Source: an uncultured Acidimicrobiia bacterium (lineage in GTDB: Bacteria; Actinomycetota; Acidimicrobiia; Acidimicrobiales; AC-14). From it: a stretch of DNA of 64,000 nt. Both the position numbers and the translations under genes were made by a program. The stretch covers positions 250,536-314,535 of the forward strand of contig CAWIIV010000007.1 in assembly GCA_963836205.1 (NCBI GenBank). Reading direction: 5' to 3'. Below the pieces are notes generated by a model. It did no database searches and was not told the origin of the DNA. It saw only the letters and a list, made by a program, of their open reading frames with translations. Positions 31,774-50,241 of the stretch are shown here, piece after piece (position 1 is the stretch's first letter; the number at the start of each line of letters is the position of its first letter).

Positions 31774-31979
31774 GCGGTACCTCCTCCGTCGGTCGTAATC
31801 GGACGAGGGCATGATCGCCCGGCCTCGTATCGGCGGCGCGACGGCGTCGTGAACGGCGGAAAAACCCTTCCTGTTGCCGACGGGGGGCGATGTCGGCGGT
31901 CCGGGCGCGCCTCGGGCCGGCCCGCTACCGTTCGGTGGCCGACCCCACGGTCGACCGAACTGGGAACTGGCGGCGTCAC

Positions 31980-33722
31980 ATGGGCGGAAACGAGGGGTTT
32001 CGGCAACCGGAGGCGGACGACCCCCTTTCGCCGTCCGAGCAGGTCGAGAAGGGTACGACCCGCTTCGCGGGCCGCCTGTGGGCCGTCGACCGGATGCTGG
32101 CCTGGCTCCGCGTCCCCGACACCCGGTTCTTCGTCCTGACGGGCGAGCCCGGCATCGGCAAGTCGGCCCTCGCCGCGTGGATGGTCGGGCACGGCCCCCT
32201 TCCTGGCGACGCCCTCGGGACCTCCGACCTGGCCGACATGCGCCACCGGTGGAGCGCGGTCCACTTCTGCCGGGCCAAGGCGGGCGGGACCCTCGATCCC
32301 AAGACGTTCGCAGCCTCGATGTCGAGGCAGCTCGCCACCCGCGACGAGGCCTTCGGCGAGCTGGCGCTGCACCACCTCGCACCCGAGGTCCGGATCACGC
32401 AGACGGTGGGCGAGAACCGGGGCCACGTCGTCGGGATCAGGGCGGAGCAGGTGATCGTGAACAGCCGCGACGCCGACGACGTCTACGACAAGGCGGTCCG
32501 GAAACCGCTGCGGGACCTGGCCCAGGCCCGGCCCGACCTGTTCCCGATGTTCTTCCTCGTCGACGGCCTGGACGAGGCCTGGGGTCGCGCCGAGCCGAAC
32601 ATCGTCACCCTCCTGGAGCGATCGGACGATCTCCCCGAGGGGGTCCACGTCCTCGTCACCACCCGCGACCTTCCGGTCGTCGTCGAGCGCATGGCCGACC
32701 GCACCCAGCTCGACCTCTCCGCGCCCGGATTCGGCGCCGACAACGACCGCGACGTGCGGGCCTACGTCGAGGAGCGGCTCGGCCACGACGGCCTGCGGGC
32801 CCAGGCGGCGGACCTGGCGAACCGGCAGGCGGTGGTCGACGAGCTGGTCGCCAGCGCCGGCGGCAACTTCCTGTTCGTGGAGTTCCTGCTCGACGACGCC
32901 GCCAGCCGCCCGGACGGGCTGGGCGACCTCGCCCGCACCCCCCGCGGGCTCTATCCCCTGTACCGCCAGTACCTCGACCGCCTGCTCCCGGCCGTGGCCC
33001 AGCCGGGCGGGGCCGATGCCTGGGCCCACACCTACCGCCCGTTGCTGGGCAGCCTCAGCGTGGCCACGCCCAGCGCCCCCGAGCCGGCCCTCCCCCGTTG
33101 GCTCACCTGGGGGATGGAGGACGTCGACCTGCGGCTCGGTGAGGTGCGGCAGCTCTGGGGGGAGAGTGGCGCCGCCGGCAGCCCCGACCACGGCTACCGC
33201 ATCTACCACCGCTCGCTGGCCGACTTCCTGGGCACGCGGGAGTACCCGGACGGGAAGGTCTCCACCAGGAACCGGTACTTCGCCGCGCCGGCGGTCCAGC
33301 ACCAGCGCATCGCCACGTATTACCTCTCGATCGGCACCGGAGCCGACGGCGACTGGGCGATGAGCGACAGGTACGGGCTCCGCCAGGTCGTTCCCCACCT
33401 GGGCGCCTGGCTCGACGGGGAGGACGAGCCCCGTCTCCAACGGGAAGTCGCCCGAACGCTCTACCAGGTCGTGCTCGACCCCGGCCTCAAGGAGGAGCAG
33501 GAGCGGCGGCTGGGTGGTGTCGGCGCCACGGTCGCGGCGTTCCGGATCGCCCTCGACACGACCTTGCGTCGGGACGACTTCGACGTGGCCGAGCGGCTCG
33601 TCACCACCCTCGCGTCCGACCTCGACGCCGAGCTGCGGGCCCTGGGCCACGAGTTCATCCTGCGCATCCAGGCGGTCGATCCGGGCCGCTTCGACGGCCT
33701 GGTCAAGAGCCTGCTGGCATGA
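31980..33722 (+). CDS. STAND (NACHT-like) P-loop NTPase without an N-terminal effector domain
   Basis: FAGRLW, Walker A GEPGIGKS, Walker B FFLVDGLDEA, VLVTTR, GGNFLF, PRGLYPLY, YHRSLADFL. Alternative start at 31890. Confidence 0.85.
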   Translation: MGGNEGFRQPEADDPLSPSEQVEKGTTRFAGRLWAVDRMLAWLRVPDTRFFVLTGEPGIGKSALAAWMVGHGPLPGDALGTSDLADMRHRWSAVHFCRAKAGGTLDPKTFAASMSRQLATRDEAFGELALHHLAPEVRITQTVGENRGHVVGIRAEQVIVNSRDADDVYDKAVRKPLRDLAQARPDLFPMFFLVDGLDEAWGRAEPNIVTLLERSDDLPEGVHVLVTTRDLPVVVERMADRTQLDLSAPGFGADNDRDVRAYVEERLGHDGLRAQAADLANRQAVVDELVASAGGNFLFVEFLLDDAASRPDGLGDLARTPRGLYPLYRQYLDRLLPAVAQPGGADAWAHTYRPLLGSLSVATPSAPEPALPRWLTWGMEDVDLRLGEVRQLWGESGAAGSPDHGYRIYHRSLADFLGTREYPDGKVSTRNRYFAAPAVQHQRIATYYLSIGTGADGDWAMSDRYGLRQVVPHLGAWLDGEDEPRLQREVARTLYQVVLDPGLKEEQERRLGGVGATVAAFRIALDTTLRRDDFDVAERLVTTLASDLDAELRALGHEFILRIQAVDPGRFDGLVKSLLA

Positions 33723-36168
33723 GGCCGCAGAGCTCGTCCGTCCCACTGGCCCGCCGCTGGCTGGTCCTCATGATTGTCGCGCTGGTCGTGCCCTGGCTCG
33801 GCCCGCAGGCAGCCGGCGCGGCGGATGTGAGCGTCTCCCCGACGAGCGGACCGCCCGGGACGACTGTGACCGTCGCGTTCGAGGGGGCGTTCTCGTTCTG
33901 CGCGGTGTACTTCGACGGCAGGCCGGTGGAGATCGTCATCGGTTGCGACTCGGCGACGGTGTCGTTCGCCGTCCGGGAGTCGGCCTCCGTCGGCGATCAC
34001 TCGATCCTCGCCCTCGCCGACGGGGCGCCCTCGGCGAACCCAACTGCGGCGGGCGGCACGGCGGAATCCGGCGGGCAACGGTCTAACTCGATCGAGCGGA
34101 CGTTCGAGTTCCGCGTCACGCCCGACGACGTGACGACCACGACCACCACGACCACCACGACGACGACGGTGCCGCCACCGATCACCTCGGCGCCACCGAC
34201 CACCGTGCCGGAGCCCGAGATCCTGCTGGTGGCAACGCCGGTCGTCTTCACCCAGACGGCGGTCCCGACGACCACCAGCACGTCGAGCACGTCGAGCACG
34301 ACGACCACGACGACAACGCCCACGACGACCACCAGGACGACGACCACCGTCGCCCGCCCCCGCACGTGTCCGCCCGGCCAGGCCGCGCTCACGTCCTTCG
34401 CCGTCGATCCCACCAACGGCCGACCCGGGGCCAGGGTCGCGGCGACCACGACGTGGGGCCCACCTGGTGCATTGCATCGACGTCCGGGACCTGGCCATAC
34501 AGTTCGACGGCAAGCCTGTCGCCGGCCGGCCGCCCCCGGTGGGCACCGCCGGGACCTTCGAGATGACAGTCCCCGACGACGCCCGCCCCGGGACCCGTCG
34601 CTTCTCGCTCGTGGATGCAGGCGACCCGTCCGTCGAGATCGGGTCCGTGTCCTTCGAGGTGGAGGGGGCTTCGGAACCGGAGCCGTTCCCCAGCGGCTGG
34701 ATCCTCGTCGCCCTGGCCGCGGCCGCCGTACTCGCGGTCGCCCTGATCGTGGGACGACGCGGTCGGTCGGACGCCCCAGCCCCGCCGAACCAGGAGTCGG
34801 CGGGTGGCGTGGCGGCCGGCGGCGACCAGGAGCGCTGGCGGACGGCCCTCAAGGCCGCGGCCTTCGTCGGCGGGTCGCAGGACGACGACGCCTTCGCTTT
34901 CGCCGCCGCGTCCAGCAACCCAGTCCTGCGCTCGACGGTCGTCTACGCCCTCGCATACCGGTGGCGGCACGACCGGGCCGCGGTCAACGGTGTGCTCGAT
35001 TCCCTCGCCGACCGGGTGGAGGGATCCGGGGTCGACCGCCGGGCCCGAGTCCTGGTCGACGCCGCCTTCACGATCTACGGCGCTCATCCCGAGGACCGAG
35101 CGTTGGCCTTCGAGGCGAGCGAGCTGTGCCGGAGGGTTCTCGGGGGTCGGCGCCGCCTGCCCCGGCGCCTGTGGCGAAAGCCGGCGGCCAACCTCTTCGG
35201 CCCGGACCTGGGCACGTTCTTCGACGCCGACGACAATCTGCGAGCCCGCTTCGACCGGGTGGTGCTCCTCGTCGATCCGTCGTCGGCGCTGGACTCGGAG
35301 ACGGTCGCCGACGATCTGGCCGCGCTGCTCGAGTCGCCCGCTTACCCGCACAACGCGCTGGCCGCCCTCGTCGTCGCGATCCACGCCGTCGACGACTTCG
35401 ACGCCACCGAGTCGCTCGTCCGCGACCTCCACCGGCGAGTCGACGCCCACGGCCGGCGCCAGCTCCTCCAGGCCTTCGCCGTCCTGCTCCCAGACACGCC
35501 CGGGGCCTGGCTGCCACTCGTCGAGCAGCTCACCCGCGACACCTTCCCGACCGCCGAACCCACGGGGGCCACCCTCGATCTGGCCCTGCTGCCCCTTGGG
35601 CTGGCCTACGCCAAGTCGACCACGACCACCGGCATGCCCATGGTCGACGCCCTCCTGGCCGAGGCGGTCGAGCGGGCGGACTGGGCCCTACGTGGCGCTG
35701 GTGGTTGAGGCCCTGGCCCCGATCGGGTTCTACGGGGCCGACCTGGTCTTCCGCTCCCTGCGCCCGGTGATGGGTGCCCTGCTCGGCGAGCCCGGGACCC
35801 GCCGGGCGCTGGCCTCGACTCTGGCTACCACCCGAACGTTCTGGTTCGACGAGGTCGACCTGTTCCTCCGGGAAACCGATGTCGGCGTCGACTTCTGGCG
35901 ACTGGTCGCGTCAGAGACGAGGCCCGAACGCATGGCGGCGCTGGTCGCTCGCATCGGCCTGCACAACAGCGCCGTCCACCACGCCATTGCTTCCCCGACG
36001 ATCCGGGAGCACCTGCTACAGGGCGGCTTCCGCGACCTGGCCTCGTCGTCGTCGCCCCGCCAATTCGCCGCCCGCTACACCCACCGCGTCCGCGGTCTCC
36101 TCCACGCCTCCGACTTCGAGCCCATCCGCTGGACCGAGCCACGCAACAACGCCGATGGTCCGAGCTGA
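33719..36168 (+). CDS. Single-pass membrane protein (signal, Ig-like x2, TM, about 470-aa helical cytoplasmic domain), with two +1 frameshifts (about 34472 and 35686)
   Basis: Joined from ORFs 33719-, 34467- and 34804-36168. Alignment with paralog 45868-48753 pins the first break (GA[t]CIDVR vs GTCTEVR). Removing 2 nt gives an 815-aa ORF. Confidence 0.75.
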
Positions 36169-36244
36169 TCGCGCCGGCAACCAGATTCTGTGCCTGCTCG
36201 GCCACCTCGATCATCTCCGCAAGCAGGACGAGCTCACGCCGCAT
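36166..36244 (-). pseudogene. 5' remnant of a HepT/DUF86 toxin gene
   Basis: MRRELVLLAEMIEVAEQAQNLVAG overlaps the MNT stop and resembles DUF86 N-termini. Similarity is lost where it meets the convergent gene end. Confidence 0.6.
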
Positions 36245-36533
36245 ACAGCAGCTGCGCCTCTGCGAGCACGGCATCCCGGATCAGGTCTTGCAACGCGACT
36301 CGGGAGACGAGGTCGACCCGACGGCCGAGGACGGCTTCGAGCTCCTCGGCGAGGGCCTCGACGTCCCAACCGAGCCGGGCGTCAGTCGCCAGGTCGTAGA
36401 GCAGGTCGACGTCGCTGTCGGGCGAGGCGTCGCCGCGGCCGACCGAGCCGAACACCTCGAGCCGCGCCACGCCGTAGCGTTCGCACACGGTTCGTAGGCG
36501 CTCGGAGTCGACCGCGAGCCCGGCGATGGTCAT
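36234..36533 (-). CDS. Minimal nucleotidyltransferase (MNT antitoxin)
   Basis: VFGSVGRGDASPDSDVDLL and LGRRVDLV motifs. Confidence 0.9.
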   Translation of the reverse strand: MTIAGLAVDSERLRTVCERYGVARLEVFGSVGRGDASPDSDVDLLYDLATDARLGWDVEALAEELEAVLGRRVDLVSRVALQDLIRDAVLAEAQLLYAA

Positions 36534-36645
36534 CGCTCAAGAGTATGGCGACCGTCGTGGCCGGCGCGGCCTCGGTCGGTGCGGTGGTGGACCGATGCCG
36601 GCGTGTGCAGCTCGTCCGGATAACCGCAGCTCAGCGCCTGCCGGC

Positions 36646-38070
36646 TCAGATGTCGTAATAGAGCATGAACTCCCACGGGTGGGGCCGTAGGCGGACCTCG
36701 TCGATCTCTCGCAGGCGTTTGTACGCGACCCACGTCTCGATGAGGTCGGAGGTGAAGACGCCGCCGGCGGTGAGGTAGTCGTGGTCGGCTTCCAAGGCCA
36801 ATAGCGCCTCGTCCAGCGACGCCGGCACCTGCGGGACGAGGGCCAATTCCTCGGGGGGGAGGTCGTAGAGGTCCTTGTCGACGGGGTCGGGTGGCTCGAT
36901 CCGGTTCTGCACCCCGTCCAACCCCGCCATCAACATGGCGGAGAAGGCGAGGTAGGGGTTGCACGACGGGTCCGGGCAGCGGAACTCCAACCGCTTGGCC
37001 TTCGGACTCTTCGAGTACAGCGGGATCCGCACCGCGGCCGACCGGTTCCGTTGGGAATACACCAGGTTGACGGGCGCCTCGTAGCCGGGAACGAGCCGTT
37101 TGTACGAGTTCGTCGTCGGCGCCGCGAACGCCAGGATCGACGGGGCATGGGCCAGCAGCCCGCCCACGTACCAACGAGCCATGTCGGACAGCCCGCCGTA
37201 GCCGGTCTCGGAGAAGAACAGCGGCTCACCCGCCTTCCACAGCGACTGGTGGCAGTGCATGCCCGACCCGTTGTCCTGAAACAGGGGCTTGGGCATGAAC
37301 GTCACCGACAGGTCGTGGGCCCAGGCCACGCACTTGGTGACGTACTTGTAGAGCATGAGCTTGTCGGCCATGCGCAGGAGGGTGTCGAAGCGCATGTCGA
37401 TCTCGGCCTGGCCGGCGGTGCCCACCTCGTGGTGTTGCACCTCCGTCTCGATTCCCACCCGCTCGAGCATGAGGATCATCTTCGAGCGCAGGTCCTGGAA
37501 GTGGTCCATCGGCGGGACCGGGAAGTAGCCCTCCTTGTACCGGGGCTTGAACCCGAGGTTGGGCTTCTCGTCGGCGCCCGAGTTCCAGATGCCCTCCACC
37601 GAGTCGACCGAGTACATCGCCGAGTGCTGGTCCTGGTGGAAGCGGACGTCGTTGAAGATGTAGAACTCCGCCTCCGGCCCGAAGTAGGCGGTGTCGGCCA
37701 GTCCGGTCGAGGTGAGGTAGTCCTCCGCCTTCTTGGCCACGAACCGGGGGTCGCGGGTGTAGGAGTCGCCGGTGACAGGGTCGCGCACGAAGCAGTTGAG
37801 GTTGAGGGTCTTGGCCTCCCGGAAGGGGTCGATCACGGCCGTGTTGGAGTCGGGGACGAGGATCATGTCCGACTCCTGGATCTCCTGGAACCCCCGGATC
37901 GACGATCCGTCGAAGCCGTAGCCCTCCTCGAAGCCGTCCTCCGTGAGCTGGTGGGCGGGCGTGGAGAAGTGCTGCATGAGGCCGGGCAGGTCGCAGAAGC
38001 GGAAGTCGACGATCTCCACGCCCTCGTCCTGCATGAGCCGCACCACGTCAGCCGGACTGCGTTCCTCCAC
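36646..38070 (-). CDS. glnA: Glutamine synthetase type I-beta (copy B)
   Basis: [40 protein letters not shown], adenylylation loop DKDLYDLP. Confidence 0.97.
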
Positions 38071-39383
38071 GGTGTCCTCCCTCGCTCGCCTCGGGCGTTG
38101 GCGAAGCTATCCCACGAGGCCCGCCGCCGACCGAGTCGTTGACCAACTGGAGCACCGCCTGGACCCCGGGCAGGCGGGCGATCCAACTGGCCGCGGCCCA
38201 CGCCAGGTTGACGTGCTCCAGGCTGCGCCCGACGGCGCCGACGCCCAACTCCCGCCGGCCGTCGCCGCCGACGTAGGTGATCCGCCGCAACCGCTCCCCG
38301 CTGCTCTCGGCGGCCTCGACCGCCAGCCCCACCGACGGCCGGCGGGCGAGGAACCCGCCCACCTCGGCGCACGGCTCGCAGGTGCGGGCGACGTAGACGA
38401 CGGCGGTGGCGGACGAGCCGATCATGGCCGGTCGCCAGCGCGGCCACCACACCCGCACCTGGCGCCGGTACTCGTGCCAGGCGGGCCCGAAGCGGTCGGC
38501 CAGCTCGATGTCCTCGCTCCACGCGGCCAGCCCGGCGGAGAAGACGGCTGCACCGGCGGCCGCGGCCACCACCGCGGGACTGGCCAGCAGCACTCCCCAT
38601 CCGGCGAGCACGACGGTCGCCCCCAGCTGCATGGGGTTGGCCACGTAGGCGTAGGGCCCGGTGGTGACGAGTCGCACGGGCGGGTCGAGGGGGACGGGCG
38701 TGCCGCCGCCGGCGCTGACGAACTCGCGGACGGCCTGGATCGCCATCGCCCCTGCCGGAGCCAGGACGAGCCCGGCGACGACGAAGTGCCACCGGGGTCG
38801 TACCAGTAGCGCGTCCCAGCCCTCGCCTGTCACCACGAACACGAGCGACGGCAGGACGAACAGGAGCAGCCCGGTGAATGCCACCACCTGGAGGACGGCC
38901 CGCCGGGGAAGGTGTTCGCCGCGGGCGGTCCACCGGCCGAGGGCCACGCCCGGCACCAGGCAGGTGGCCACGGCGAGCGCCTCGCCCACCAGCCACGATG
39001 CCGTGGAGCACGACCACCGGCTGACCCAGGGGCATGAGCACCAGGTCGGCGGCCACGAGCAGCCCGCTGGCGAGCACGAGCCGGTCGACGGTCGCCAGCA
39101 GGGGGACGGCGCCCCACAGCAGGGCCCACCCGATCCAAAGGTCGGCCGGCACCCCCGCCACCGCCCCGCCGGACACGGCGAACGTCCACCACCCGGCCCG
39201 CACCGCGACCAGGTTGAGAGCCAGCAGTGCGGGCAGGTTCCAGGCCGTCGCCAACAGGGCAGCGGCCCAGCGCCGGCGATCAGGCGGCCGGCGGTGCAGG
39301 ACCAGCGCGATCGCCAGGAGGATCGGCAGGTACAGCGCCGCCGCCCGCACCACCAGCTCGGACGACGAGCCCGGCCTGATCAC
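38048..39383 (-). CDS. Membrane protein with PEMT/ICMT-like methyltransferase domain and C-terminal CxxC (DCC1-like) domain, frameshifted near 39000
   Basis: [44 protein letters not shown]. The N-terminal TM part lies in ORF 37863-39572. GTGA overlap at 39380-39383. Confidence 0.7.
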
Positions 39384-40327
39384 CGGAGGTGCGCTTCCAC
39401 CACCGCGTCGAGGAGGTAGCCGGCCGCCCGGTCCATGCCGAAGCGTTGAAGGGGAGCGAAGTAGACGGTCGGGTAGAGGAGGCGCTCGTACTCGAGCGTC
39501 CACGTGACCCGGGTCCGGCCGGAGTCGCCGATCGGCGCCCAGGTGACCACGGCCCGGTCGACGCGGACCCACCGGGCGAGCATGGTTCCGTCGTGGTCGA
39601 CCCCGAAGACCACCCGGCCGGGGCTCGACTCCACCACCCGCAGGTGCATCTCGGCGTGGTGGTCGACGCTGCGGTGCCCGCCCAGGCCGAAGAGCCGCAG
39701 GGGATGGTCGTCGTGGGTACCGCCGGTGAACTCGATGGCCCGGACGTCGCCCACGGCGATGCCCGACCCGGTGGCGCCCACGGGCCGGTTGAACCCGACG
39801 GTGAGGAACATCGGCAGCGGCGTGTCGAACCGGGGCGGAGCGGCAACGGCTTCCGCCACTTGGGCCGGTGTGGCGCGGACGATGACGGCGGCGGTGGCCG
39901 AGTCGAGCGTGGCGAAGGGCGACCCGGCCACGCCTTCCATGCTCATGAGGAGGAGGGGGAACGTGACCACCATGAGCGTCGGTCCCTGGCCGCGCTTGTG
40001 GCGGCGGGCGAAGTCGATCGCCCCTCCGACGACCACCGAGATGAGCGCCACCAGGGGCACCGCGAACAGCAGGCAGAGCAGGCCCTCGGGGAGGATCACG
40101 CAGGCGATCAGGAGGGCGAGGACCGAGCCCTTGAGGAGCATGCCGGTGGCGCTGCGGCGACGAGGGGTGAGCACCAGCCCGATGGCGAGGAGGGTCGGGA
40201 TGCCCACGTAGAGCGCCGCCGTGCGGGACCAGCCGGTGGCGTAGACCAGTCGCTAGGCGACGTTCACCACCGCCAGCACCACGATGAGGACGATCACCTG
40301 CATCCGGGCGTCGAAGCGGGGGGTCAT
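39380..40327 (-). CDS. Membrane protein with C-terminal SRPBCC-like domain; in-frame TAG at 40253-40255
   Basis: MTPRFDARMQVIVLIVVLAVVNVA*RLVYATGWSRTAALYVGIP continues in frame into ORF 39380-40207 (EGLLCLLFAVP, TRVTWTLEYERLLYP). Confidence 0.65.
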
Positions 40328-40333
40328 GCCGTT

Positions 40334-40363
40334 ATGGTACACTTCACTAGTGTCTACTAGCAA
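40334..40363 (-). promoter_or_regulatory. Candidate MerR-type promoter, probably leaderless
   Basis: Minus strand reads TTGCTA-18 nt-TACCAT-6 nt-ATG, with a CTAGT-N4-ACTAG dyad (40347-40360) overlapping the -35 and spacer. Divergent MerR gene. Confidence 0.55.
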
Positions 40364-40373
40364 GGTAAACGAT

Positions 40374-41126
40374 ATGGCGATCGACGAGCTGGCTCAGGCC
40401 GCCGGTGTCGTCGTGTCGACGGTCCGCCTCTATCAGAACCGAGGGCTGCTCCCGCCGCCGGTGAAGCGGGGCCGGGTGGGCTTCTACGGCGCCGGCCATC
40501 TCGGTCGCCTCCGCCTCATCGGCCAGCTCCAGGAGCGGGGGTTCTCACTGGCCGGCATCAAGGCCCTGCTCGACGGGATGGACCGGGGGGAGAGCCTCCA
40601 GGCCGTCCTCGGCGTCGACGGAGGGTCGGCTTCACCCACTTGGGCGCCGGAGCAGCCGGTGACGATGACGGTGGCCGAGCTGGCCGTCCACCTCCCCGAC
40701 GTGGAGCTCGACGCCGGCCTCGTGCGGCGCACGATCGAGCTGGGCCTGCTCGAGTTCACCGCCGACGGCACCGGGGTGGTGGTCCGCAGCCCGTCGTTTC
40801 TCCGCATCGGCAGCCAGCTGGCCGCCCTGGGACTGCCGCCGCGGGTGATCCTCGACGAATACGAACAGCTGGTGGAGGAGACGGCCGGCGTCGCCGCCCG
40901 CTTCACCGACGTGTTCCGCACACACCTGTGGGAGCCGTTCGTGACCCAAGGCATGCCGGCGGCCGAGGTCACCCGCCTGGTCGGCGCCCTGGAACAACTC
41001 GGACCGCTGGCCGAGGCCGTCGTCGAGACGTCGCTCCGCCATGCTTTGCAGGCCGCCGCCGAACGCTTCGTCGAGACCGAAGCCGACCGTCTCGGCATCG
41101 ACATCCCCCGCCCCGGCCAACTCTGA
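40374..41126 (+). CDS. MerR-family transcriptional regulator
   Basis: MAIDELAQAAGVVVSTVRLYQNRGLLPPP...RLRLIGQLQERGFSLAGI. Confidence 0.9.
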   Translation: MAIDELAQAAGVVVSTVRLYQNRGLLPPPVKRGRVGFYGAGHLGRLRLIGQLQERGFSLAGIKALLDGMDRGESLQAVLGVDGGSASPTWAPEQPVTMTVAELAVHLPDVELDAGLVRRTIELGLLEFTADGTGVVVRSPSFLRIGSQLAALGLPPRVILDEYEQLVEETAGVAARFTDVFRTHLWEPFVTQGMPAAEVTRLVGALEQLGPLAEAVVETSLRHALQAAAERFVETEADRLGIDIPRPGQL

Positions 41127-41152
41127 CGCCGGCCCCCACCCGTCCCCCCACA

Positions 41153-41264
41153 GCCAACCGGTGACAATTTCGGTGGCCCTGGCCCCCAAAAACGTCACCG
41201 GTTCGCGCGCCCGCCGCCAACCGGTGACGCTTTCGGTGGCCCTGGCCCCCAGATCCGTCACCAG
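41153..41264. repeat. Two tandem REP-like palindromic units (about 50 bp, 63-bp period)
   Basis: gccaaccggtgac..tttcggtggccctggccccca....cgtcacc at 41153 and 41216. Each unit closes a ggtgac/gtcacc stem. Lies between convergent genes. Confidence 0.8.
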
Positions 41265-41282
41265 ATCGGCTGGTACGGCCCG

Positions 41283-41702
41283 CTACAACCCGCGGATGAC
41301 GATCTCACGGTGGCCGTTCGCGAGCGCCTCGAGATCATCGGGATCGCCGGTGAGGATCACGCCACCGCCGAGCTCGATTGCTGTCGCGACCACCACGGCG
41401 TCGACCGTGGAGTTGGACCGGGCCGCGCCGAGCAGACCGCCCGCCACACGCCCGGTCCCCTCGTCAGCAGGCCGCACCTGTCCGACCGCCGTGATGACCC
41501 GGTTGACGGGGGCATCCTTGGCCGATCCACGCACTGTCTCGGCGACCACCAACGACGGGAGCGACACCTCGACCCCGGCCTCCCACGCCGCGGCCAGCAC
41601 GGCGCGGGCTCGCTGGTCGTTGCGGGACAGCGCGATCACCGCGCCGCTGTCGAGGATCAGGCGCTGCGGCGGGGTTTGGGTGCGACGGCGGATCCGCGCC
41701 AA
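41283..41702 (-). CDS. vapC: PIN-domain toxin (VapC-like)
   Basis: LILDSGAVIA, VVAET, VDAVVVATA and ILTGDPDDL acidic PIN motifs. Confidence 0.88.
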   Translation of the reverse strand: MARIRRRTQTPPQRLILDSGAVIALSRNDQRARAVLAAAWEAGVEVSLPSLVVAETVRGSAKDAPVNRVITAVGQVRPADEGTGRVAGGLLGAARSNSTVDAVVVATAIELGGGVILTGDPDDLEALANGHREIVIRGL

Positions 41703-41908
41703 AGCTGCCTGGCCTCCTCCAGCAGGTCATCGGGGATCGGGCCTGACTCGGCGTCCATCTGTGCCAGGAGTTCACCGAGCCGGTCGTGCTGCAACTGGCG
41801 GCGCAGCGCCTCGGTCACGTACGACGACAGCTCCCGGCGACCGGCACGCTGGCGCGCCTCGGCGAGCACATCCTCCTCGATGCTGAGCGACACCTTCGCT
41901 ATCGCCAT
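41657..41908 (-). CDS. RHH antitoxin (VapB/CopG-like)
   Basis: KVSLSIEEDVLAEAR...LSSYVTEALRRQL, overlapping and upstream of the PIN gene. Confidence 0.82.
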   Translation of the reverse strand: MAIAKVSLSIEEDVLAEARQRAGRRELSSYVTEALRRQLQHDRLGELLAQMDAESGPIPDDLLEEARQLWRGSAVAPKPRRSA

Positions 41909-42001
41909 GGGCGTATCGTACCTTGAGTAGGAATACCTGCGCCGTCGTGCGGGCCGCCGACCCGCGTCTTCGAACGTCAGCGGCCCAGCCGGGTAACGAA
42001 C

Positions 42002-43426
42002 TCAGATGTCGTAGTAAAGGTGGAACTCGTAGGGGTGAGGCCGTAGCCGCAAAGCGTCGATCTCGTGCTCCCGCTTGTAGGCGATGTGGGTCTCGATGAC
42101 GTCGTCGGTGAAGACCCCTCCGGCCCGGAGGAAGTCGCCGTCGGACTCCAGGGCCAGCAACGCCTCGTCCAGCGACGCCGGAACCTGCGGCACCATGGCC
42201 AGCTCCTCCGGAGGGAGGTCGTAAAGGTCCTTGTCGACCGGGTCGGGGGGCTCGATGCGGTTGAGGACCCCGTCCAGGCCCGCCATCATCATGGCCGCGA
42301 AGGCCAGGTAGGCGTTCGACGACGAGTCGGGGCAGCGGAACTCGACGCGCTTCGACTTGGGCGCCTTCTGCGCCAGCGGGATGCGGCACGACGCCGACCG
42401 GTTGCGCTGGGAGTACACCAGGTTCACCGGCGCCTCGTAACCCGGCACCAGCCGCTTGTACGAGTTGGTGGTGGGGTTGGAGAAGGCGCAGATGGCGGCC
42501 GCGTGTGACAAAAGCCCGCCGATGTACCACCGCCCGATGTCGGACAGGCCGGCGTAGCCCGTCTCCGAGTAGAAGAGCGGCGTGTCGCCCTTCCACAGCG
42601 ACTGGTGGGTGTGCATGCCCGACCCGTTGTCCTCGAACAGGGGCTTGGGCATGAACGTGATCGTCTTGCCGAACGCCTTGCCCACGTTCTTGACCACGTA
42701 CTTGAACGTCACCAGCTTGTCGGCCATGGCCAGCAGGGTGTCGAAGCGCATGCCGATCTCGCCCTGACCACCCGAGGCCACCTCGTGGTGGTGCAGCTCG
42801 ACCGGGATCCCCAGCGCGATCAGCGTCGCCGCGATCTCCGAGCGGAGGTCCTGGTAGTGGTCCATCGGGGGGACGGGGAAGTAGCCCTCCTTGGTGCGGG
42901 GCTTGTAGCCGAGGTTCGGCCCCTCGTCGCGGCCCGTGTTCCAGGTGCCCTCCACCGAGTCGACCAGGTGGAACGACGAGTTGCCCCGGTAGTAGAAGCG
43001 GACGTCGTCGAAGATGAAGAACTCGGGCTCGGGGCCGAAGTAGGCCTTGTCGCCCACGCCGGTCGATCCCAGGTAGGCCTCCGCCTTCTTGGCGACGTAC
43101 CGGGGGTCGCGGCTGTAGGCCTCGCCCGTCACCGGGTCGTGCACGAAGCAGTGGACGTTGAGCGTCTTGCGGGTGCGGAAGGGGTCGATGTAGGCGGTGT
43201 TGGGGTCGGGAATCAGGATCATGTCCGATTCCTGGATCTGCTGGAACCCCCGGATCGACGAGCCGTCGAAGCCGTGGCCGTCGGTGAACACCGCCTCCGT
43301 CATCTGCGTCGCGGGGACGCTCACGTGCTGCACCAGACCAGGTAGGTCACAGAAGCGATAGTCGACGAACTCGACGTCTTGATCCGACAACATCGCCAAG
43401 ACGTCGGCCGGGCTGCGTTCCTGCAC
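42002..43426 (-). CDS. glnA: Glutamine synthetase type I-beta (copy A)
   Basis: Same motif set and length (474 aa) as 36646-38070, including DKDLYDLP. Confidence 0.97.
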
Positions 43427-43481
43427 GGGTGTCCCCCTTCATGGGCCTCTGCGTACGAACGTGCAACCATCGCGGCAGCCA

Positions 43482-43497
43482 GTTACCCGTCAGTTGC
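43482..43497 (-). promoter_or_regulatory. Candidate GlnR box
   Basis: Minus strand GCAAC-n6-GTAAC, similar to the actinobacterial gTnAc-n6-GaAAc motif, in the glnA/glnA2 divergent region. Confidence 0.5.
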
Positions 43498-43581
43498 GTC
43501 TTGATGAACGGGGTGTGAACTAGCAGGTCGCCAAACTCCGGAGGGTTCGGGGGTGGTTCAGGGGCTGCGAAGATACCGGCC

Positions 43582-44919
43582 ATGGAACGTCAGCAGGACT
43601 ATGTCCTCCGGTCGGTGGAGGAGCGGGGCATCCGTTTCATCCGCCTGTGGTTCACCGACGTGCTCGGCCAGCTCAAGTCGATCGCCATCGTCCCCGGCGA
43701 GCTGGAGAACGCCTTCGAGGAGGGGATGACGTTCGACGGCTCGGCCATCGACGGCTTCAGCCGGGTGCAGGAGAGCGACATGCTCCTCCACCCCGACCCC
43801 AACACCTTCGAGCTGCTCCCTTGGCGGGGCGAGGACGCACCCGTCGCCCGGATGTTCTGCGACGTCACCAACCTCGACGGCTCACCCTTCGAGGGTGACC
43901 CCCGCAACGTCCTGCGGCGGGCGCTCGACCGGGCACGGAACCTGGGATTCTCGTTCTACGTCGGCCCCGACATGGAGTTCTTCTACTTCAAGGGCGTGGC
44001 CGACGGTCCGCCCCAGCCGGTGCCCATCGACTACGGCGGCTACTTCGACCTCACCACCGTCGACGTCGCCACCGACCTGCGCCGGCGCACGATCCTCGCC
44101 CTCGAGTCGATCGGCATCCCCGTCCGCTACAGCCACCACGAGGACGCCCCCGGCCAGCACGAGATCGACCTCCGCTACACCGACGCCCTGACCATGGCCG
44201 ACAACGTCATGACCTTCAAGCTGGTGGTGAAGGAGATCGCGCTCGAGCGGGGCGTGTACGCGTCGTTCATGCCCAAGCCCCTGCCCGGCGTCCAGGGATC
44301 GGGGATGCACACCCACATCTCCCTGTTCGAGGGCGACGTCAACGCCTTCAGCGACCCCGGCGACGAGACCCACCTGTCCAAGGTGGGCAAGGGCTTCGTG
44401 GCCGGGCTGCTCCACCACGCCCGGGAGATCACCGCCGTCACCAACCAGTGGGTGAACTCCTACAAGCGGCTGGTGGTGGGGTTCGAGGCGCCGGTGTACG
44501 TGGCCTGGGCCCGCAACAACCGCTCCGCCCTGGTGCGCATCCCGGGGGCGAAGAAGGGCAAGCAGTCGTCGACCCGCATCGAGTTCCGCTCCCCCGACCC
44601 CGCCTGCAACCCCTACCTCGCCTTCGCCGTCATCCTCGGCGCCGGCCTGCGGGGCATCGAGCACGGCTACGACCTGCCGACGGAGCTCACCGCCAACCTC
44701 TACGAGATGACCCCCGAGGAGCGCCTCGCCGAGGGGGTGGAGGCCCTCCCCGGCTCCCTGGAGGAGGCGGTGGCCTGCATGGCGAAGTCGGAGCTGCTAC
44801 CTGAGGTGCTGGGCGAGCATGTCTTCGAGTGGTTCATCCGCAACAAGCGGGTGGAGTGGGAGGCCTACAAGTCGCAGGTCACCCCGTTCGAGATCGACCG
44901 CTACCTGCCGATCCTCTAA
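43582..44919 (+). CDS. glnA2: Glutamine synthetase family protein, GlnA2-like
   Basis: FIRLWFTDVLGQLKS, FDGSAIDGF, HHEDAPGQHEID, GSGMHTH, NRSALVRIP, RIEFRSPDPACNPY. Confidence 0.92.
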   Translation: MERQQDYVLRSVEERGIRFIRLWFTDVLGQLKSIAIVPGELENAFEEGMTFDGSAIDGFSRVQESDMLLHPDPNTFELLPWRGEDAPVARMFCDVTNLDGSPFEGDPRNVLRRALDRARNLGFSFYVGPDMEFFYFKGVADGPPQPVPIDYGGYFDLTTVDVATDLRRRTILALESIGIPVRYSHHEDAPGQHEIDLRYTDALTMADNVMTFKLVVKEIALERGVYASFMPKPLPGVQGSGMHTHISLFEGDVNAFSDPGDETHLSKVGKGFVAGLLHHAREITAVTNQWVNSYKRLVVGFEAPVYVAWARNNRSALVRIPGAKKGKQSSTRIEFRSPDPACNPYLAFAVILGAGLRGIEHGYDLPTELTANLYEMTPEERLAEGVEALPGSLEEAVACMAKSELLPEVLGEHVFEWFIRNKRVEWEAYKSQVTPFEIDRYLPIL

Positions 44920-44938
44920 GGCGAGGGGACCGAACAAC

Positions 44939-45619
44939 TTGGAATCGCTACTGCTCTTCCCGGAGCCGCCGCCGCCCTTGGTGGTGGCCGTGCTCGACAC
45001 GGCCGGCTATCCGTGGAAGCCGGCCACCACGTCCGACGAAGCGTCCAAACGGGAGCCGGAGGACGGGTGGTCGGGCGCCGTCATCTGCGCCGACGACGAC
45101 GCCGAGGGCGCGCTGGCGATGTGTCGCAGCCTGCGCAAGCGCGACATCCCCCTCGAGCCCTTGCTGCTGCTGGTGGCCGCGACCCAGCTCGACGACCTCG
45201 AGCTGCGGGAGGACCTGTTCGACGACATCTGCGTGCTCCCCCTGCGGGCGGGCGAGCTGGAGGCCCGGCTACGGCATCTGTTCTGGCGGACGGGCCGGGG
45301 CACCCGTCCCGAGCTCATCGAGTACGGGCAGCTGATCCTCAACCTGGAGACGTACCAAGCCGCCATCGCCGGCCGCCCCCTCGACCTCACCTACATGGAG
45401 TACGAGCTGCTCAAGTTCCTGGCCACCCACCCGGGCAAGGTGTTCACCCGGGAGATGCTGCTGTCGCGGGTGTGGGGCTACGAGTACTACGGCGGCGCCC
45501 GCACGGTCGACGTCCACATCCGGCGGCTGCGGGCGAAGCTCACCGAGGAGCACGCAGGGCTGATCCACACCGTGCGGTCCGTGGGCTACCGATTCGGGCA
45601 GTCCCGCTGGGGATTGTGA
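44939..45619 (+). CDS. glnR: GlnR-like orphan OmpR-family regulator
   Basis: LDLTYMEYELLKFLATHPGKVFTRE...VWGYEYYGGARTVDVHIRRLRAKL, atypical receiver, directly downstream of glnA2. TTG start. Confidence 0.8.
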   Translation: MESLLLFPEPPPPLVVAVLDTAGYPWKPATTSDEASKREPEDGWSGAVICADDDAEGALAMCRSLRKRDIPLEPLLLLVAATQLDDLELREDLFDDICVLPLRAGELEARLRHLFWRTGRGTRPELIEYGQLILNLETYQAAIAGRPLDLTYMEYELLKFLATHPGKVFTREMLLSRVWGYEYYGGARTVDVHIRRLRAKLTEEHAGLIHTVRSVGYRFGQSRWGL

Positions 45620-45638
45620 AGGGTCGGCGCCGCCGGCT

Positions 45639-45845
45639 TCAGCCGCCGCCTTCCATCTTCTGGCGCAGGCTGAGCGGGCGCATGTCGGTCCAGACCTCCT
45701 CGATGTAGGCCAGGCACTCGGCCTTGGTGCCGGACTTGCCCGCCTCCCGCCAGCCGAGGGGCACCTCCCGGTCGGCGGGCCAGATGGAGTACTGCTCCTC
45801 GTCGTTCACCACGACGGTGTAGGTCTTGTCGTCCTCTTCGGCCAT
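45639..45845 (-). CDS. mbtH: MbtH-like protein
   Basis: [13 protein letters not shown]...PLGW...[17 protein letters not shown]. Confidence 0.95.
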
Positions 45846-45867
45846 CAGTCCACCTCGCTTCGACTCG

Positions 45868-48753
45868 TCAGCTGTTCGACATGGCGCCCGAGGCTACCCG
45901 TCCCGCCACCCAGGCGGTGAGCTGCAGGAACCGCTCCCAGGGGAAGCCGGGGCCGGGGTCGAAGTCGCGGTTGGCGGCGATCCCGGCCTGGCCGTCGTGC
46001 CACTGTTCGACCGTGATGCGCCGCACGGCGATCCCGTGGCGCACGGCCCGTATCCCGGCCCACGTGGCCGCCCGCACGAGGAGGGCCTCCTCCCGGGCGG
46101 GGTCGGTGCCCCACGCCGACGGGTCGTAGGCGAGGGCCAGGTCGATGGCGGCCGAGCTGGAGCGGACGCCGTGGAGGGCGGTGGCCTCGTCCGGGAGGAG
46201 GTCGACGATGACGTCGGGGTCGACGACGGCGTGGGCCGCCTCCGGCTGGTCGACGGACGCCAGGTGAGCGGCGACGGCGTCGGCCGTGCCGCCGGGGAGC
46301 GTGTGGAGGACGACGGCCCGGATCCCGCCGTAACGGGTCGGGTAGTACCAGCCGTGCTTGCCGTTGGCCCGGAGGGTCGCGTGGGCGTTCTGGTGCTCGA
46401 GCAGGTAGTACGAGGGCTCGGCGCTGACCTGGGCGATGAGCTCGTCCGGCGTCGGGAGCGGCCGTCGGGGCCGGGGGAGTGAGGGAGCGGGAGCCCCATT
46501 GGCCGGCCGGGACGGTTCGAGGCCCTCACCCTCGGTCGACTCATGGGTCGGTACGGCCGCGCCAACGGCCGCCGCCGTCTCGACCGGCGCCACCTCGACA
46601 GGCAGCGGCGCCGAGTCCGGCGCCTCCCCGATCGGTGCCTCCGAGACCGACGATTCCGAGACCCGCCGTTCCGAGGACGGCAAAGGCTCAGCGACCGACT
46701 CCGGGACCGGCGACTCCGGGACCGTCGCGGCGTCGACCGGCATCGGCCGCGGCGCCCATACGGGGCGCTCCGCGTCCGGCGGCTCCGAAGTGGGCAACGC
46801 CGAGGCGACTGGCGACTCGGAGACCGTTCCCGCCTGGACGAGCGGCGCCCCCCAGACTGGCCGCGGCCCGATCGACGGCGCCTCCGGGATCGGCCGAGGC
46901 TCCCAGGCTGGTCGGTGCCCGACCGGCGGCGGCGCGTCCGGCGTCTCCGAGACCGGCGCGGGCGCGGCGACCGTCGCCTCCGGGACCGGCACCGGTTCGT
47001 CGTCCTCCGGTTTCGAGTCGGCGGTCTCGTCGGCCATGGCCGTGGCCGGCGGCGGATCGGTCAGGGTGACCATCCGGTGCCAGAGGAACGTCGTGTCGCC
47101 CGAGAGGAGGCCGAGGTCGCCGGCCTCGAACTCGACCCCGGTGACGAGGCGGGCGGGGATGGCGTGCTCCCGCATCTTGGCCTCGGCCCACCGGCCGGCG
47201 TGGCCGAACACGGCCTCGTCGACGGACGGTTCCTGGCCCAGTCCGGCCAGGAGCAGGACCAGGATCGCCTCGTCGTGCTCGGGCTGGTGAACGGCGACCA
47301 CGTCGTCGGGCAGGAGGTCGAGGGCGCCGTCGACGTCGACCAGCACGTGGGCCGACGCCGGCGTCTCACCCATCGCCAGCTCCGACGCCGCCGCCCCCGC
47401 GGTGTGGGCCTCGACGGTGTCGACCACGATGCCCCGGATCGGTTGGGTCCGACCGTCGCGGTACCAACCCCGCTTGCCGTTGGCCTGGCGGGGGGCGTGG
47501 GGATTCTGGCGTTCGAGGAGGTAGAACGACCCGTGGCGCCCGCCGGCCACCACGAGGGGGACGACCGGCATCGTGGGATGGTCCTCGACGAGGATCGCAG
47601 GCGCGGTCGGCACGTCGACGTCGGGGGATGCACTGCCGTCGGCGACGACGGGGACCTCGAGGGTGCCTCCCCACCCGCCCCCGTCGTCGCCGTCAAAGCC
47701 GTCGTCGGCCCAGCCGTCGTCGGTCGGCCGCCCCCGATCCGCCCTCCTCGCCCGCCGCCCTCGCCGGCGCCGCCGCCGCACCATCAGCAACACGAGCAGC
47801 AGCAACGCCACTCCCGCCGCCGCCAGTCCGGCGATGGGCAGGATCGACGCCTTGGCCTCTTCGACCCGGAAGGCGATGGTGGCCAGCTCGACCGACGGGT
47901 CGTCGTCGGCCACCAGGGCCAGGGTGTGGGGGCCCGCCTCGGCGTCCCTCGGGATGCTCATCTCGAAACTCCCGGAGGTGCCGGCGACGGGCGGCTCGCC
48001 CGGCACCGTCTTGCCGTCGAGGATCACCCGCAGGGTGCGGACCTCGGTGCACGTGCCCACCAGCCCGTAGGTGGTCGTGCCCGTGACCTTGGCCCCCGGC
48101 CGGCCCCGGAGCGGTGCGACGGCGAATCGCTTCAGCGCCACCTGGCGGGGCGGGCAGACGGCACCGATCCCCTGCCCCGTGCCGGTGGTGGAGGCTCCGG
48201 TCAGCACGCCGGCCACCGAGGTCGAGTTTGGTGGCCCGGTGGTCGTGGGCTGCGGGGTGGTCGAAGCAGTGGAGCCGGTCGTCGCGGTGCGGGCGACTGT
48301 CGTCGGCGCGCCCACCGCGCCCACGACGACGTTGTTCTCCGTGGCCGAGACGGGTGCGGAGCTGATCGGGGGCGTGGTCGGCGCCGGTGCGGTGGTGGTG
48401 GGCGTGGCCGTGACCCGGAAGGTGAAGCTCTGCGACGGCGCCGTGCCCTCGAGCACGATGCCTTCGGCCAGGATGGTGTGGTTGCCGGCGGCGGTGGGCG
48501 GCACCTCGAACACGAGGGTGGTGGCGTCCTGGCAGTCTCGCGCTCCCGCCACCGGTTCACCGTCGAAGAACACGACGCAGCCCGCTCCGAAGTCGGTGAG
48601 GGTGACGCTCACCGTCGTGCCCACGGGGCCGCTCTGCGGATCCACAGTCACCGTGTACGCGGCGGCAGGGCCCTGTCCGAGCCATGGGCCCGCGAGCAGG
48701 GCGAGAACCACCAACAACCAGCGTCGAGCAGGCGGGGCAGCCTGGCCGGTCAT
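45868..48753 (-). CDS. Single-pass membrane protein (signal, Ig-like x2, TM) with two cytoplasmic degenerate Amidase_2/PGRP-like domains
   Basis: Ectodomain is paralogous to 33719. TM followed by RRRRRRGRR. Repeated domain YLLE.QN.HA...NGK.GWY...IR.VV(D/H)T...AH..VD, the second ending [11 protein letters not shown]. Confidence 0.8.
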
Positions 48754-48821: not shown

Positions 48822-49169
48822 TCAGCCCACGAAAGCCCAGGCCTCGATCTCCACCAGCGCCCCCATGGGCAGGCCCGCGACCCCCACCGTGGCCCGGGCC
48901 GGACGGTGCTCACCGAAGACTTCGGCGTACACCTCGTTCATGGCCGGGAAGTCCTCGATGTGGCGCAGGTAGACGGTGGTCTTGACCACGTCGGCCAGCG
49001 ACGCGCCCTCCGTGTCGAGCACCGCGGCCAGGTTGGCCAGCACCTGGCGGGTCTGTTCGGGGACGCCACCGTCGACGATGGCGCCACCCGACAGCGGGAT
49101 CTGGCCGGAGACGGCCAGCCACTCTCCTGCTCGGACGACCGGGCGGTAGGGCCCGATCGGGGTGCTCAG
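48822..49169 (-). CDS. RidA/YjgF family protein (apparent CTG start)
   Basis: STPIGPYRP...SGQIP...VVKTTVYL...MNEVY...PARATVGVAGLP..ALVEIE. Confidence 0.88.
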   Translation of the reverse strand: MSTPIGPYRPVVRAGEWLAVSGQIPLSGGAIVDGGVPEQTRQVLANLAAVLDTEGASLADVVKTTVYLRHIEDFPAMNEVYAEVFGEHRPARATVGVAGLPMGALVEIEAWAFVG

Positions 49170-49177
49170 CTGGAGGC

Positions 49178-50201: not shown

Positions 50202-50206
50202 CGGGT

Positions 50207-50238: not shown

Positions 50239-50241
50239 GAC

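Follow-up and report, generated by a model that had tools for sequence, protein, structure and literature searches.

Bacterial NACHT-type STAND proteins of the bNACHT and Avs kinds combine a NACHT-type P-loop module with a large domain of helical repeats behind it, where the sensor sits. The paper by Kibby et al. names the C-terminal helical domains of NACHT proteins and describes bacterial NACHT proteins with transmembrane (TM) regions, including a class with a C-terminal TM, which may sense membrane or periplasmic signals; extracellular domains are also on record for other NTPase conflict systems. We analysed a stretch of 64,000 nucleotides (the window) from an uncultured Acidimicrobiia bacterium, in which two genes, gene 1 (33719–36168, + strand) and gene 2 (45868–48753, − strand), share one extracellular module consisting of a signal peptide, two immunoglobulin (Ig)-like domains with a Thr-rich stalk between them, and a TM helix. 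Behind the TM, gene 1 continues into the helical sensor domain of a NACHT-type STAND protein that is split between two genes, its NTPase being encoded immediately upstream, and gene 2 has two amidase-like domains in tandem.

Relatives of the helical domain of gene 1 have CHAT, TIR, kinase or trypsin N-terminal domains, as in bNACHT and Avs systems. The window's system differs from those systems in consisting of two overlapping genes, in having an NTPase without an effector domain, and in a sensor gene whose 5′ part encodes a signal peptide, a pair of Ig/IPT-like domains and a TM, so that in gene order an ectodomain comes between the nucleotide-binding oligomerisation domain (NOD) and the sensor. 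We did not find this split, Ig-headed NACHT architecture in the main-text literature on bNACHT and conflict systems, whose supplementary tables may list it. The closest described proteins to gene 2 are AmpD (PDB 1j3g) and AmiD, with which it shares a cytoplasmic Amidase_2 fold and a C-terminal motif (GH...TDPGPsFdW in AmpD). Unlike AmpD and AmiD, gene 2 has two tandem copies that are membrane-tethered behind an Ig-like ectodomain, and its forms in the genus lack the second His and the Glu of a GIE motif, both of which are kept by the distant relatives P0022, P0028, P0086 and P0089 (here and below, P, L and G label fused or related proteins, loci and genomes, G000 being the window's genome). 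The enzyme activity of the genus forms is therefore doubtful. CwlM of mycobacteria provides an Actinomycetota precedent for a cytoplasmic cell-wall-amidase homologue that acts as a regulator; the likeness is functional only, and CwlM belongs to the Amidase_3 family and has neither a TM nor an ectodomain. Among animal receptors, PGRP-LC, MET and the plexins likewise cross the membrane once and contain Ig/IPT-like or Amidase_2/PGRP-like domains, and non-catalytic peptidoglycan recognition proteins (PGRPs) act as receptors. Relative to PGRP-LC, the predicted topology of gene 2 is inverted, with the amidase-like domains inside the cell.

The window (C7:250536–314535) has a G+C content of ~72% and lies in a 4.05-Mb assembly of 25 contigs, 88.6% complete, that resembles a metagenome-assembled genome (MAG). 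Because a G+C-rich genome has long open reading frames (ORFs) in all six frames, we picked coding frames by third-position GC (GC3). Gene 1 is read in three frames, with GC3 phase shifts at ~34470 and ~35690, and for protein comparisons we joined its three pieces with an X at each break. The features of the NTPase gene, gene 1 and gene 2 are as follows.

31890–33722, + strand: NACHT-type STAND NTPase, 610 aa, intact (Pfam, paralog alignment)
33719–34468, + strand: gene 1 frame A, starting with the ATG at 33719 (translation, GC3 phase, alignment to gene 2 and P0013)
~33719–33820, + strand: gene 1 signal peptide, in frame A
~33821–34123, + strand: gene 1 Ig/IPT-like domain 1, in frame A
~34124–34370, + strand: gene 1 Thr-rich stalk, in frame A, followed by the first part of domain 2
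34466–34472, + strand: first frame break, best explained by one extra base in GCATTGCATC (DNA, translations, homolog alignment)
34469–35690, + strand: gene 1 frame B, with the rest of domain 2 to ~34667 (GC3 phase, alignment to P0013 and P0062)
~34701–34757, + strand: gene 1 TM helix, in frame B, followed by a basic stretch
~34824, + strand: start of the gene 1 helical domain, in frame B
35686–35692, + strand: second frame break, consistent with one extra base in CCCTACGTG (DNA, translations, contiguous P0013 alignment)
35692–36168, + strand: gene 1 frame C, the last 158 aa of the helical domain, ending in IRWTEPRNNADGPS before the stop codon at 36166–36168 and aligning with the P0013 C-terminus
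45868–48753, − strand: gene 2, one intact ORF of 961 aa (translation, Pfam, AlphaFold2, Foldseek, AmpD alignment, orthologs)
48658–48753, − strand: gene 2 signal peptide (translation)
48400–48657, − strand: gene 2 Ig/IPT-like domain 1 (AlphaFold2 model)
48160–48399, − strand: gene 2 stalk, Thr-rich
47854–48159, − strand: gene 2 domain 2 (AlphaFold2 model)
47779–47844, − strand: gene 2 TM, followed by a 12-residue Arg-run stretch
47059–47571, − strand: gene 2 amidase-like domain N, recognised as an internal repeat and separated from domain C by a Pro-rich linker
45871–46428, − strand: gene 2 amidase-like domain C (Pfam Amidase_2)

The X-joined product of gene 1 aligned with gene 2 at 36.4% identity over 332 aa (E 1.5e-37; residues 6–318 against 4–301). 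Taken separately, the frame-A ORF (36% over 256 aa, E 7e-18) and the frame-B ORF, which carries domain 2 (48% over 67 aa, E 7e-16), each matched gene 2 as well, and the X-joined protein showed no similarity to gene 2 past the TM. The original prediction, made from the letters of the window, had claimed a common extracellular architecture followed by unrelated cytoplasmic parts, and it was borne out on both points, with coordinates and content as it described. It had also named four conserved Cys: in an alignment of 14 family sequences, C28, C43 and C169 are invariant and C204 is present in at least 90% of the rows, with one Cys pair in each Ig-like domain. The same alignment has 18 invariant columns. 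Since the similarity is far above chance and extends in colinear order over these invariant columns, the shared extracellular architecture is real and goes beyond low-complexity noise.

An AlphaFold2 model of the mature gene 2 ectodomain, built from the 14-row alignment, consists of two beta-sandwich domains and a disordered Thr/Pro-rich linker, with block means of the predicted local distance difference test (pLDDT) of ~80–96 in both domains and an overall mean of 78.3. Foldseek comparison with the PDB returned tandem Ig-like ectodomains (E 3e-5 to 3e-4, 7–12% identity), led by the IPT regions of MET and plexins, intimin/invasin, S-layer domains and Fc receptors; the likeness to MET and plexins is one of fold only. 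The structural check proposed beforehand for the ectodomain thus returned a pair of Ig/IPT-like beta-sandwiches. Gene 2 has no direct Pfam TIG match at E <= 0.01, and members of the ectodomain family have only weak GEVED or Big_13 matches. Sequence relatives of domain 1 have Pfam TIG (PF01833) or Big_6, with PF01833 present in P0016, P0019, P0021 and P0025. The beta-sandwich model, the IPT/Ig matches and the TIG-bearing relatives agree on an IPT/TIG-type fold. Modelling of the gene 2 ectodomain as a homodimer scored 0.00 and carries no weight either way. The N-terminal hydrophobic segment of the module ends in AxA (judged by eye), an Arg-rich run follows the TM (the 12-residue stretch in gene 2, GRRGRS in gene 1), and the N-terminus would lie outside the cell and the C-terminus inside.

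That the two ectodomains resemble each other only as generic Ig/IPT or low-complexity sequences, and do not share descent, has a close to negligible probability. Domain 1 alone does match many unrelated multi-IPT surface proteins (~40 of 57 database matches), and the stalk is Thr-rich low-complexity sequence. Yet the order of signal peptide, domain 1, stalk, domain 2 and TM is colinear, domain 2 is 48% identical (E 7e-16), the four Cys and the 18 invariant columns extend across 14 sequences, and a two-domain hidden Markov model (HMM) matched at full length only within the genus among 401 genomes. Generic low complexity had been named beforehand as what would undo the prediction, and we rejected it on colinearity, domain 2 identity, invariant columns and HMM specificity.

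The prediction had further coupled the helical domain of gene 1 to a STAND NTPase. The pair exists, but the NTPase is a separate upstream gene (31890–33722) that lies before the start given for the receptor gene; its TGA overlaps the ATG of gene 1 (ATGA). A Walker A motif is defined as GxxxxGK[ST] and a Walker B motif as hhhhD followed by acidic residues. The NTPase has GEPGIGKS and a Walker B-like FFLVDGLDEA, as in a P-loop NTPase, and it matched the NACHT-clade profile NPHP3_N (PF24883) at 43.6 bits (cutoff 24.8); its match to NACHT (PF05729), at 19.8 bits, is below the cutoff of 26.7. The tripartite effector–NOD–sensor layout of immune STAND proteins is not found in it.

A fused paralog, P0062, is encoded as an ORF of 1096 aa on contig C24 of the same genome and has counterparts of ~1085 aa in six of the seven genus-mates. 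The NTPase aligned with residues 4–616 of P0062 (38% identity, E 3e-97). The X-joined gene 1 product aligned without interruption with P0013, an intact protein of 827 aa, from residues 28 to 813 (50% identity over 810 aa), and residues 383–815 of P0013 aligned with residues 658–1096 of P0062 (37%, E 2e-61). Because the NTPase and the cytoplasmic part of gene 1 match P0062 end to end, the two genes together correspond to one fused STAND protein, relative to which ~330 residues (signal peptide, Ig-like domains and TM) are inserted at the junction of NTPase and solenoid. The sensor is contiguous with the NOD in P0062, and lies in a separate second gene in the window and at L026. A model of the solenoid, made on P0064 with 20 rows, is all-alpha with 27 helices (mean pLDDT 87.3; predicted template modelling score 0.88), and its Foldseek matches in the PDB were weak HEAT/ARM proteins (importins, Integrator subunits), none at E <= 0.001. 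Judged from these comparisons, the cytoplasmic part of gene 1 is the C-terminal HEAT/ARM-like helical (solenoid) domain of a split NACHT-type STAND NTPase. The Pfam match and the P0062 alignment place it with a NACHT/STAND system, in agreement with its description as NLR-like.

A query with the helical domain returned 19 proteins, including P0013, P0063, and stand-alone and fused forms. Five are stand-alone solenoids of 463–496 aa (P0064–P0068); in the fused relatives the solenoid follows a NACHT module with CHAT, TIR, protein kinase or trypsin-like N-termini. P0063, an ORF of 1430 aa on another contig, has NTPase, ectodomain, TM and solenoid adjacent to one another. The window's NTPase shares 73% identity with the N-terminal portion of P0063 and 65% with the NTPase of L026, a locus in an Acidimicrobiales MAG. 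At L026 the NTPase ORF (5178–6968) ends in ...KSLLA before its stop, where the window's NTPase ends in ...VKSLLA, and the stop overlaps the GTG start (GTGA) of a 486-aa solenoid gene without an ectodomain. A UbiA-like prenyltransferase gene adjoins both the fused paralog P0062 (L025 916–2664, −) and this split pair (L026 4045–5157, −), and a patatin-like gene (L026 8385–9866, −) lies convergent with and downstream of the pair. Either could be a partner or an effector.

Two amidase-like domains in gene 2, which the prediction had likewise read from the translation, were recovered as a Pfam Amidase_2 match (PF01510, residues 811–935, 31.5 bits, cutoff 26) and an internal repeat at residues ~395–565; domain N is tied to Amidase_2 only through this repeat and the family alignment. 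As Amidase_2 is the superfamily of AmpD and the PGRPs, the cytoplasmic part of gene 2 is PGRP-like, as had been proposed. AmpD (PDB 1j3g) was the best PDB sequence match, at E 0.002 for the C domain of gene 2 and E 0.0004 for a three-row profile; neither domain N of gene 2 nor the whole of P0022 matched the PDB. The AmpD sequence GH...TDPGP aligns with GFISHAELDP..RTDPGP in P0022 and P0028, and with a 12-residue stretch in the window. In a 12-row alignment, the C domains of the genus (window, P0006, P0009) keep VLHT and DPGP, have IDLA or LDLA in place of GIE, and have lost the second His through a 6-residue deletion. With respect to the Zn-ligand and catalytic set (His, His, Asp, Glu), the C domain of gene 2 retains only the first His and Asp. 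In none of the N domains is the first His, the Glu or the second His present, and the Asp is absent from most; the N domain of gene 2 has none of the four positions. The distant tandem-amidase forms P0022, P0028, P0086 and P0089 keep all four canonical residues in the C domain. Judging from these residues, both cytoplasmic amidase-like domains of the genus are probably non-catalytic, whereas the distant relatives may be active as amidases. Because the genus domains have lost catalytic residues, the likely role of those in gene 2 is to bind partner proteins or muropeptide-like ligands, not to cleave them.

To gauge the spread of the module we queried 41 genomes (G000, its seven genus-mates and 33 genomes of other genera) with the ectodomain, and obtained matches in eight, namely G000 and all seven genus-mates; none of the 33 others matched. 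Across 401 genomes of the order, the two-domain HMM gave full-length matches only in G000, G002 and G004, with matches to domain 1 alone in three further genomes. Gene 1 and gene 2 are the only copies in the window's genome. A search of 1.84 billion representative proteins gave 57 matches at E <= 1e-3, ten of them at E <= 1e-30; most of the weak matches are multi-IPT surface proteins that share domain 1 only (~40 of the 57, by blastp classification). Both domains are combined with tandem amidase-like domains in P0005, P0006, P0008, P0009, P0012, P0015, P0022 and P0028, and with a STAND helical domain, among the 57, in P0013. P0046 has both domains and a tail of only seven residues, and is present on contigs of up to 39.6 kb. 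P0035 (1354 aa, metagenomic) has the pair of domain 1 and domain 2 twice, then a TM and ~780 Cys-rich residues. P0013 and P0063 are singleton clusters. The original idea of a reused receptor chassis therefore stands to the extent that one ectodomain–TM module precedes two unrelated cytoplasmic modules; the larger claim, of a big family with many swapped modules, is not supported by these searches, which yielded two main cytoplasmic modules, one tail-less form and two copies in the genome. On this distribution, the module appears to be lineage-restricted, with two hosts.

Gene 2, the amidase form, appears to be the ancestral, old and conserved host, because it is present in all seven genus-mates, its synteny is conserved and more distant tandem-amidase forms exist. 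The genes upstream of it are:

48822–50261, − strand: conserved neighbours upstream of gene 2, namely RidA (48822–49205), an IscA/HesB-like gene (49178–49498) and an ArsR-type helix-turn-helix (HTH) gene (Pfam)

The ArsR-type gene is listed as an ORF at 49539–50900, with the HTH at its residues 245–296; its genus orthologs have 223–235 codons. At all five readable genus loci, ~700 nt separate it from the gene 2 ortholog downstream (L005, L006, L007, L008, L012), as in the window, where the IscA-like and RidA genes occupy the interval. A query with the cytoplasmic part of gene 2 returned 20 proteins, most with the same ectodomain and some of them fragments; in P0093, domain 1 is accompanied by a pair of Big_9/cadherin-like domains and a domain-2-like stretch before the TM. 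Close gene 2 homologs are labelled as Actinomycetota MAGs, and every named member of the tandem-amidase family that we encountered is annotated as "hypothetical protein". In G004 the gene 2 ortholog is found on two contigs with identical scores, L012 (G004:C8) and L009 (G004:C4); at L012 it is broken into two ORFs in a GC-rich repeat directly after the TM, and the G006 ortholog (L010/L014/L016, G006:C10) has stop codons. Breaks in gene 2 orthologs, or assembly trouble there, appear to recur.

In a maximum-likelihood tree of 21 solenoid domains, the three ectodomain-bearing copies (window, P0013 and P0063) form one clade (100/99), which is nested in a 100/99 clade of stand-alone copies; the fused P0062 and P0072 fall outside. 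In a tree of 17 ectodomains, the STAND-type sequences lie within a 98/98 clade that also contains the amidase-type sequences of the genus, with P0022, P0028 and P0046 outside. Both trees were midpoint-rooted, for drawing only. Since the ectodomain-bearing forms are one clade among ectodomain-less forms, the trees point to a single capture of the module by the STAND solenoid gene. The simplest history would run from a fused protein to a split pair and then to one capture of the module from the amidase-type gene of the lineage. We rejected a recent duplication of gene 2 within the genome: the two ectodomains are only 36–48% identical, and that of gene 1 groups with P0013.

The NTPase/gene 1 pair is located downstream of glnE, between a divergent PadR gene (31399–31800, −) and a gene for glutamine synthetase. 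Two genus-mates, G005 and G002, have catabolic genes after PadR (AMP-ligase-like and FAA-hydrolase, joined in G005 by a cupin gene), and G003 has a beta-propeller gene in the same slot. No second solenoid match was found in any of the seven genus-mates, and the NTPase/solenoid pair is present in one of the eight genus genomes searched. The variable slot and the lack of a second solenoid in genus-mates mark the pair as an apparent accessory element of the window's genome.

Gene 1 is broken in the assembly by two one-base insertions. Removing one base from GCATTGCATC gives TTTWGPPGACIDVRDL, equal in length to the homologs (a 16-residue counterpart in gene 2), and removing one base from CCCTACGTG gives ADWALVALVVEAL (ADWAL joined to VALVVEAL), to be compared with EDWPLVARVVEGL in P0013. 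The frame join at 34472 had been noticed before and is seen in the DNA, the translations and the homolog alignment; the second join, at ~35690, had gone unnamed. Programmed frameshifting was rejected: two events would be needed, and the homolog P0013 is a plain ORF. We hold it reasonably probable that gene 1 is a decaying pseudogene in the window's genome. Uninterrupted coding-like ORFs cover 42.0 kb of the window, and if two breaks fell at random among them, the chance of both landing in one gene of 2.45 kb would be 0.003. Within its clade the window's solenoid has the longest terminal branch (0.49; the other two measure 0.20 and 0.30), and its identity to P0063 is just 50%, compared with 73% for the NTPases. 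We count the variable genomic position of the pair toward the same side.

The breaks could also be an artefact of assembly, for which we put the chance a little short of even. Gene 1 would then be intact in the living organism, the breaks being consensus errors of a metagenome assembly, and NTPase and TM sensor would form a working two-gene system, a serious possibility that nonetheless falls below an even chance. P0013 is intact and aligns across both breaks, the three pieces of gene 1 have no in-frame stops, the upstream NTPase is intact, and the genome is an incomplete, 25-contig, MAG-like assembly; out-of-frame stretches or breaks are moreover frequent in other assemblies of the family (P0054, P0063, and the G004 and G006 orthologs). 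On the other hand, neither break lies within a long homopolymer, the 42.0 kb of coding-like ORFs elsewhere in the window are unbroken, and the solenoid has diverged about twice as far from P0063 as the NTPase has (50% against 27% difference), on the longest branch. Also on the side of real mutations, a scan of the whole 4.05-Mb genome gave 576 same-strand frame switches, 475 of them with a stop at the switch, and ~87–101 candidate breaks; the scan is crude, with an ORF-overlap criterion that does not discriminate at high GC and a stop-distance criterion that gives a rough count. Among read data, only four runs held a small share (0.06–0.09) of the words, and a few short contigs, from three soil runs belonging to one study, matched the window exactly over 151–213 nt. 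A 151-nt contig of a ~92%-identical relative aligns from 35684, too near the contig end to judge the second break. The alignment of a 700-nt contig of the same relative stops at 34473, although the contig itself extends 51 nt further.

The account that explains these observations best, and that we regard as probable with some reservation, is that of a module with two hosts, captured by a split STAND system, of which gene 1 is likely decaying here. A fused NTPase–solenoid protein would first have been split into two translationally coupled genes, and the module would next have been added once to the 5′ end of the already split-off solenoid gene. The solenoid would thereby be held at the inner face of the membrane, beneath the extracellular Ig-like pair, and the soluble NTPase, made from the overlapping upstream gene, would bind it as it does within the fused protein. 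The pair would be a membrane-tethered, NLR-like switch with a sensor arm open to influence from the envelope or the cell's surroundings; the ectodomain would either transmit such a cue or merely localise the sensor.

Several points count against this account. In addition to the frequent out-of-frame stretches described above, the frame-switch scan missed both breaks in gene 1 and so has limited sensitivity, and no read or contig bridges either break. Only three ectodomain-bearing STAND forms are known (window, P0013 and P0063); the single ORF of P0063 is a product of ~35 out-of-frame codons at the end of its NTPase part, and so represents adjacency and not a natural fusion, and a search of genome and metagenome contigs with P0013 found no relative. 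No Pfam effector domain occurs in the ~80 residues before the P-loop of the NTPase, or in the fused paralog. PADLOC, with its Avs and bNACHT models included, gave a convincing match for none of five proteins, the best (E 0.0015 and 0.0055) covering short stretches. The signal peptide and TM assignments are by-eye readings of the sequence, and the Zn-ligand and catalytic positions of AmpD are those that we take to be His34, Glu116, His154 and Asp164: a literature text search for these residue names returned nothing, and the tool alignments show only the GH...DPGP part.

Whether the ectodomain would signal at all bears on two further readings. The module may be a mere membrane anchor, with Ig-like domains that bind the cell's own envelope, a solenoid that senses a cytoplasmic cue such as an injected phage component, and no transmembrane signal; we find this possible but rather doubtful. 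Solenoids do work without an ectodomain, to judge from the split pairs that lack one (L026, P0064–P0068) and the fused P0062 and P0072, and published bacterial STAND sensors bind cytoplasmic phage proteins. However, a single TM helix would suffice as an anchor, and because none of the three STAND-type copies has lost either Ig-like domain or any of the four Cys, the ectodomain itself is suggested to be under selection. At the other extreme, in intact, P0013-type copies the ectodomain would detect a cue in the envelope or beyond the cell, for instance a phage particle, another cell nearby or a piece of wall, and signal through the TM to the HEAT-like arm, activating or releasing the co-translated NACHT NTPase, while the same ectodomain on the pseudo-amidase would couple the same cue to a muropeptide or cell-wall pathway: one head, two pathways. 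This fuller scheme we consider improbable.

Any immune role of the pair would have to be set against a housekeeping one. The NTPase and solenoid may act as a STAND switch in housekeeping or regulation, and gene 2 may regulate peptidoglycan recycling or the cell wall, with the ectodomain coupling both to the same envelope feature. The lack of an effector domain and of a PADLOC match would fit such a role, as would the retention of the fused paralog in six of seven genus-mates, which is unusual for accessory defence genes, and the housekeeping neighbourhood of gene 2 (RidA, IscA, ArsR). A cytoplasmic amidase homologue that regulates wall synthesis is also on record in CwlM (PMC4946905), which regulates MurA. 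We nevertheless rate this reading as tentative and on the unlikely side: the solenoid family is otherwise carried by NACHT proteins with CHAT, TIR, kinase and trypsin domains, typical conflict architectures that point to conflict systems, and the pair occupies a variable slot in one of eight genus genomes.

Other features of the window lie around the two genes. An MNT-type nucleotidyltransferase of 99 aa (PF01909; 36234–36533, −) is convergent with gene 1, 65 nt from its stop, and no HEPN partner for it was found in the flanking frames. Three glutamine synthetase genes fall within 8 kb (36646–38070, −; 42002–43426, −; 43582–44919, +). The first two have ~72% protein identity (one G005 gene matches them at 97% and 72%) and, over segments, DNA identity of 79–84%; the third gene shows ~38% identity. 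The gene for the adenylyltransferase, glnE (27643–30462, +) is near them. In the gap after a MerR gene, 41147–41268 consists of two tandem 59-nt copies, 85% identical, each with a palindrome-like CCAACCGGTGAC...GTCACCGGTT. The gene at 30746–31300 (−) encodes a Thr/Ala-rich protein of 184 aa with an N-terminal TM and a C-terminal LPNSG, hydrophobic segment and RRAR, which resembles surface proteins anchored by sortase; genus-mates have conserved parts of it beside glnE. At 18850–22900 (−) the translations indicate a Tad/Flp-type pilus cluster with a CpaF-like ATPase, TadB/C-like membrane proteins and a CpaE/TadZ-like gene; this region, irregular in the frame plot, resolves to ordinary overlapping genes, a point that we count toward real mutations in gene 1.

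For the window itself the message is more modest: one gene of the two is probably disrupted, and the family has few members, its ectodomain–STAND form being rare. The STAND/NLR-like proteins of bacteria that have been studied to date sense cytoplasmic ligands; if the proposed arrangement is true, a single-pass sensor arm bearing Ig-like domains outside the cell would offer a simple way to test whether such switches can be driven from there. The tandem AmpD-like membrane proteins are an uncharacterised Actinomycetota family, with active-looking and dead-looking members that suit the study of how an amidase changes into a binding or regulatory protein. The stepwise history, from fused to split to split with a captured module, is unusually readable and would show a receptor head moving between pathways.

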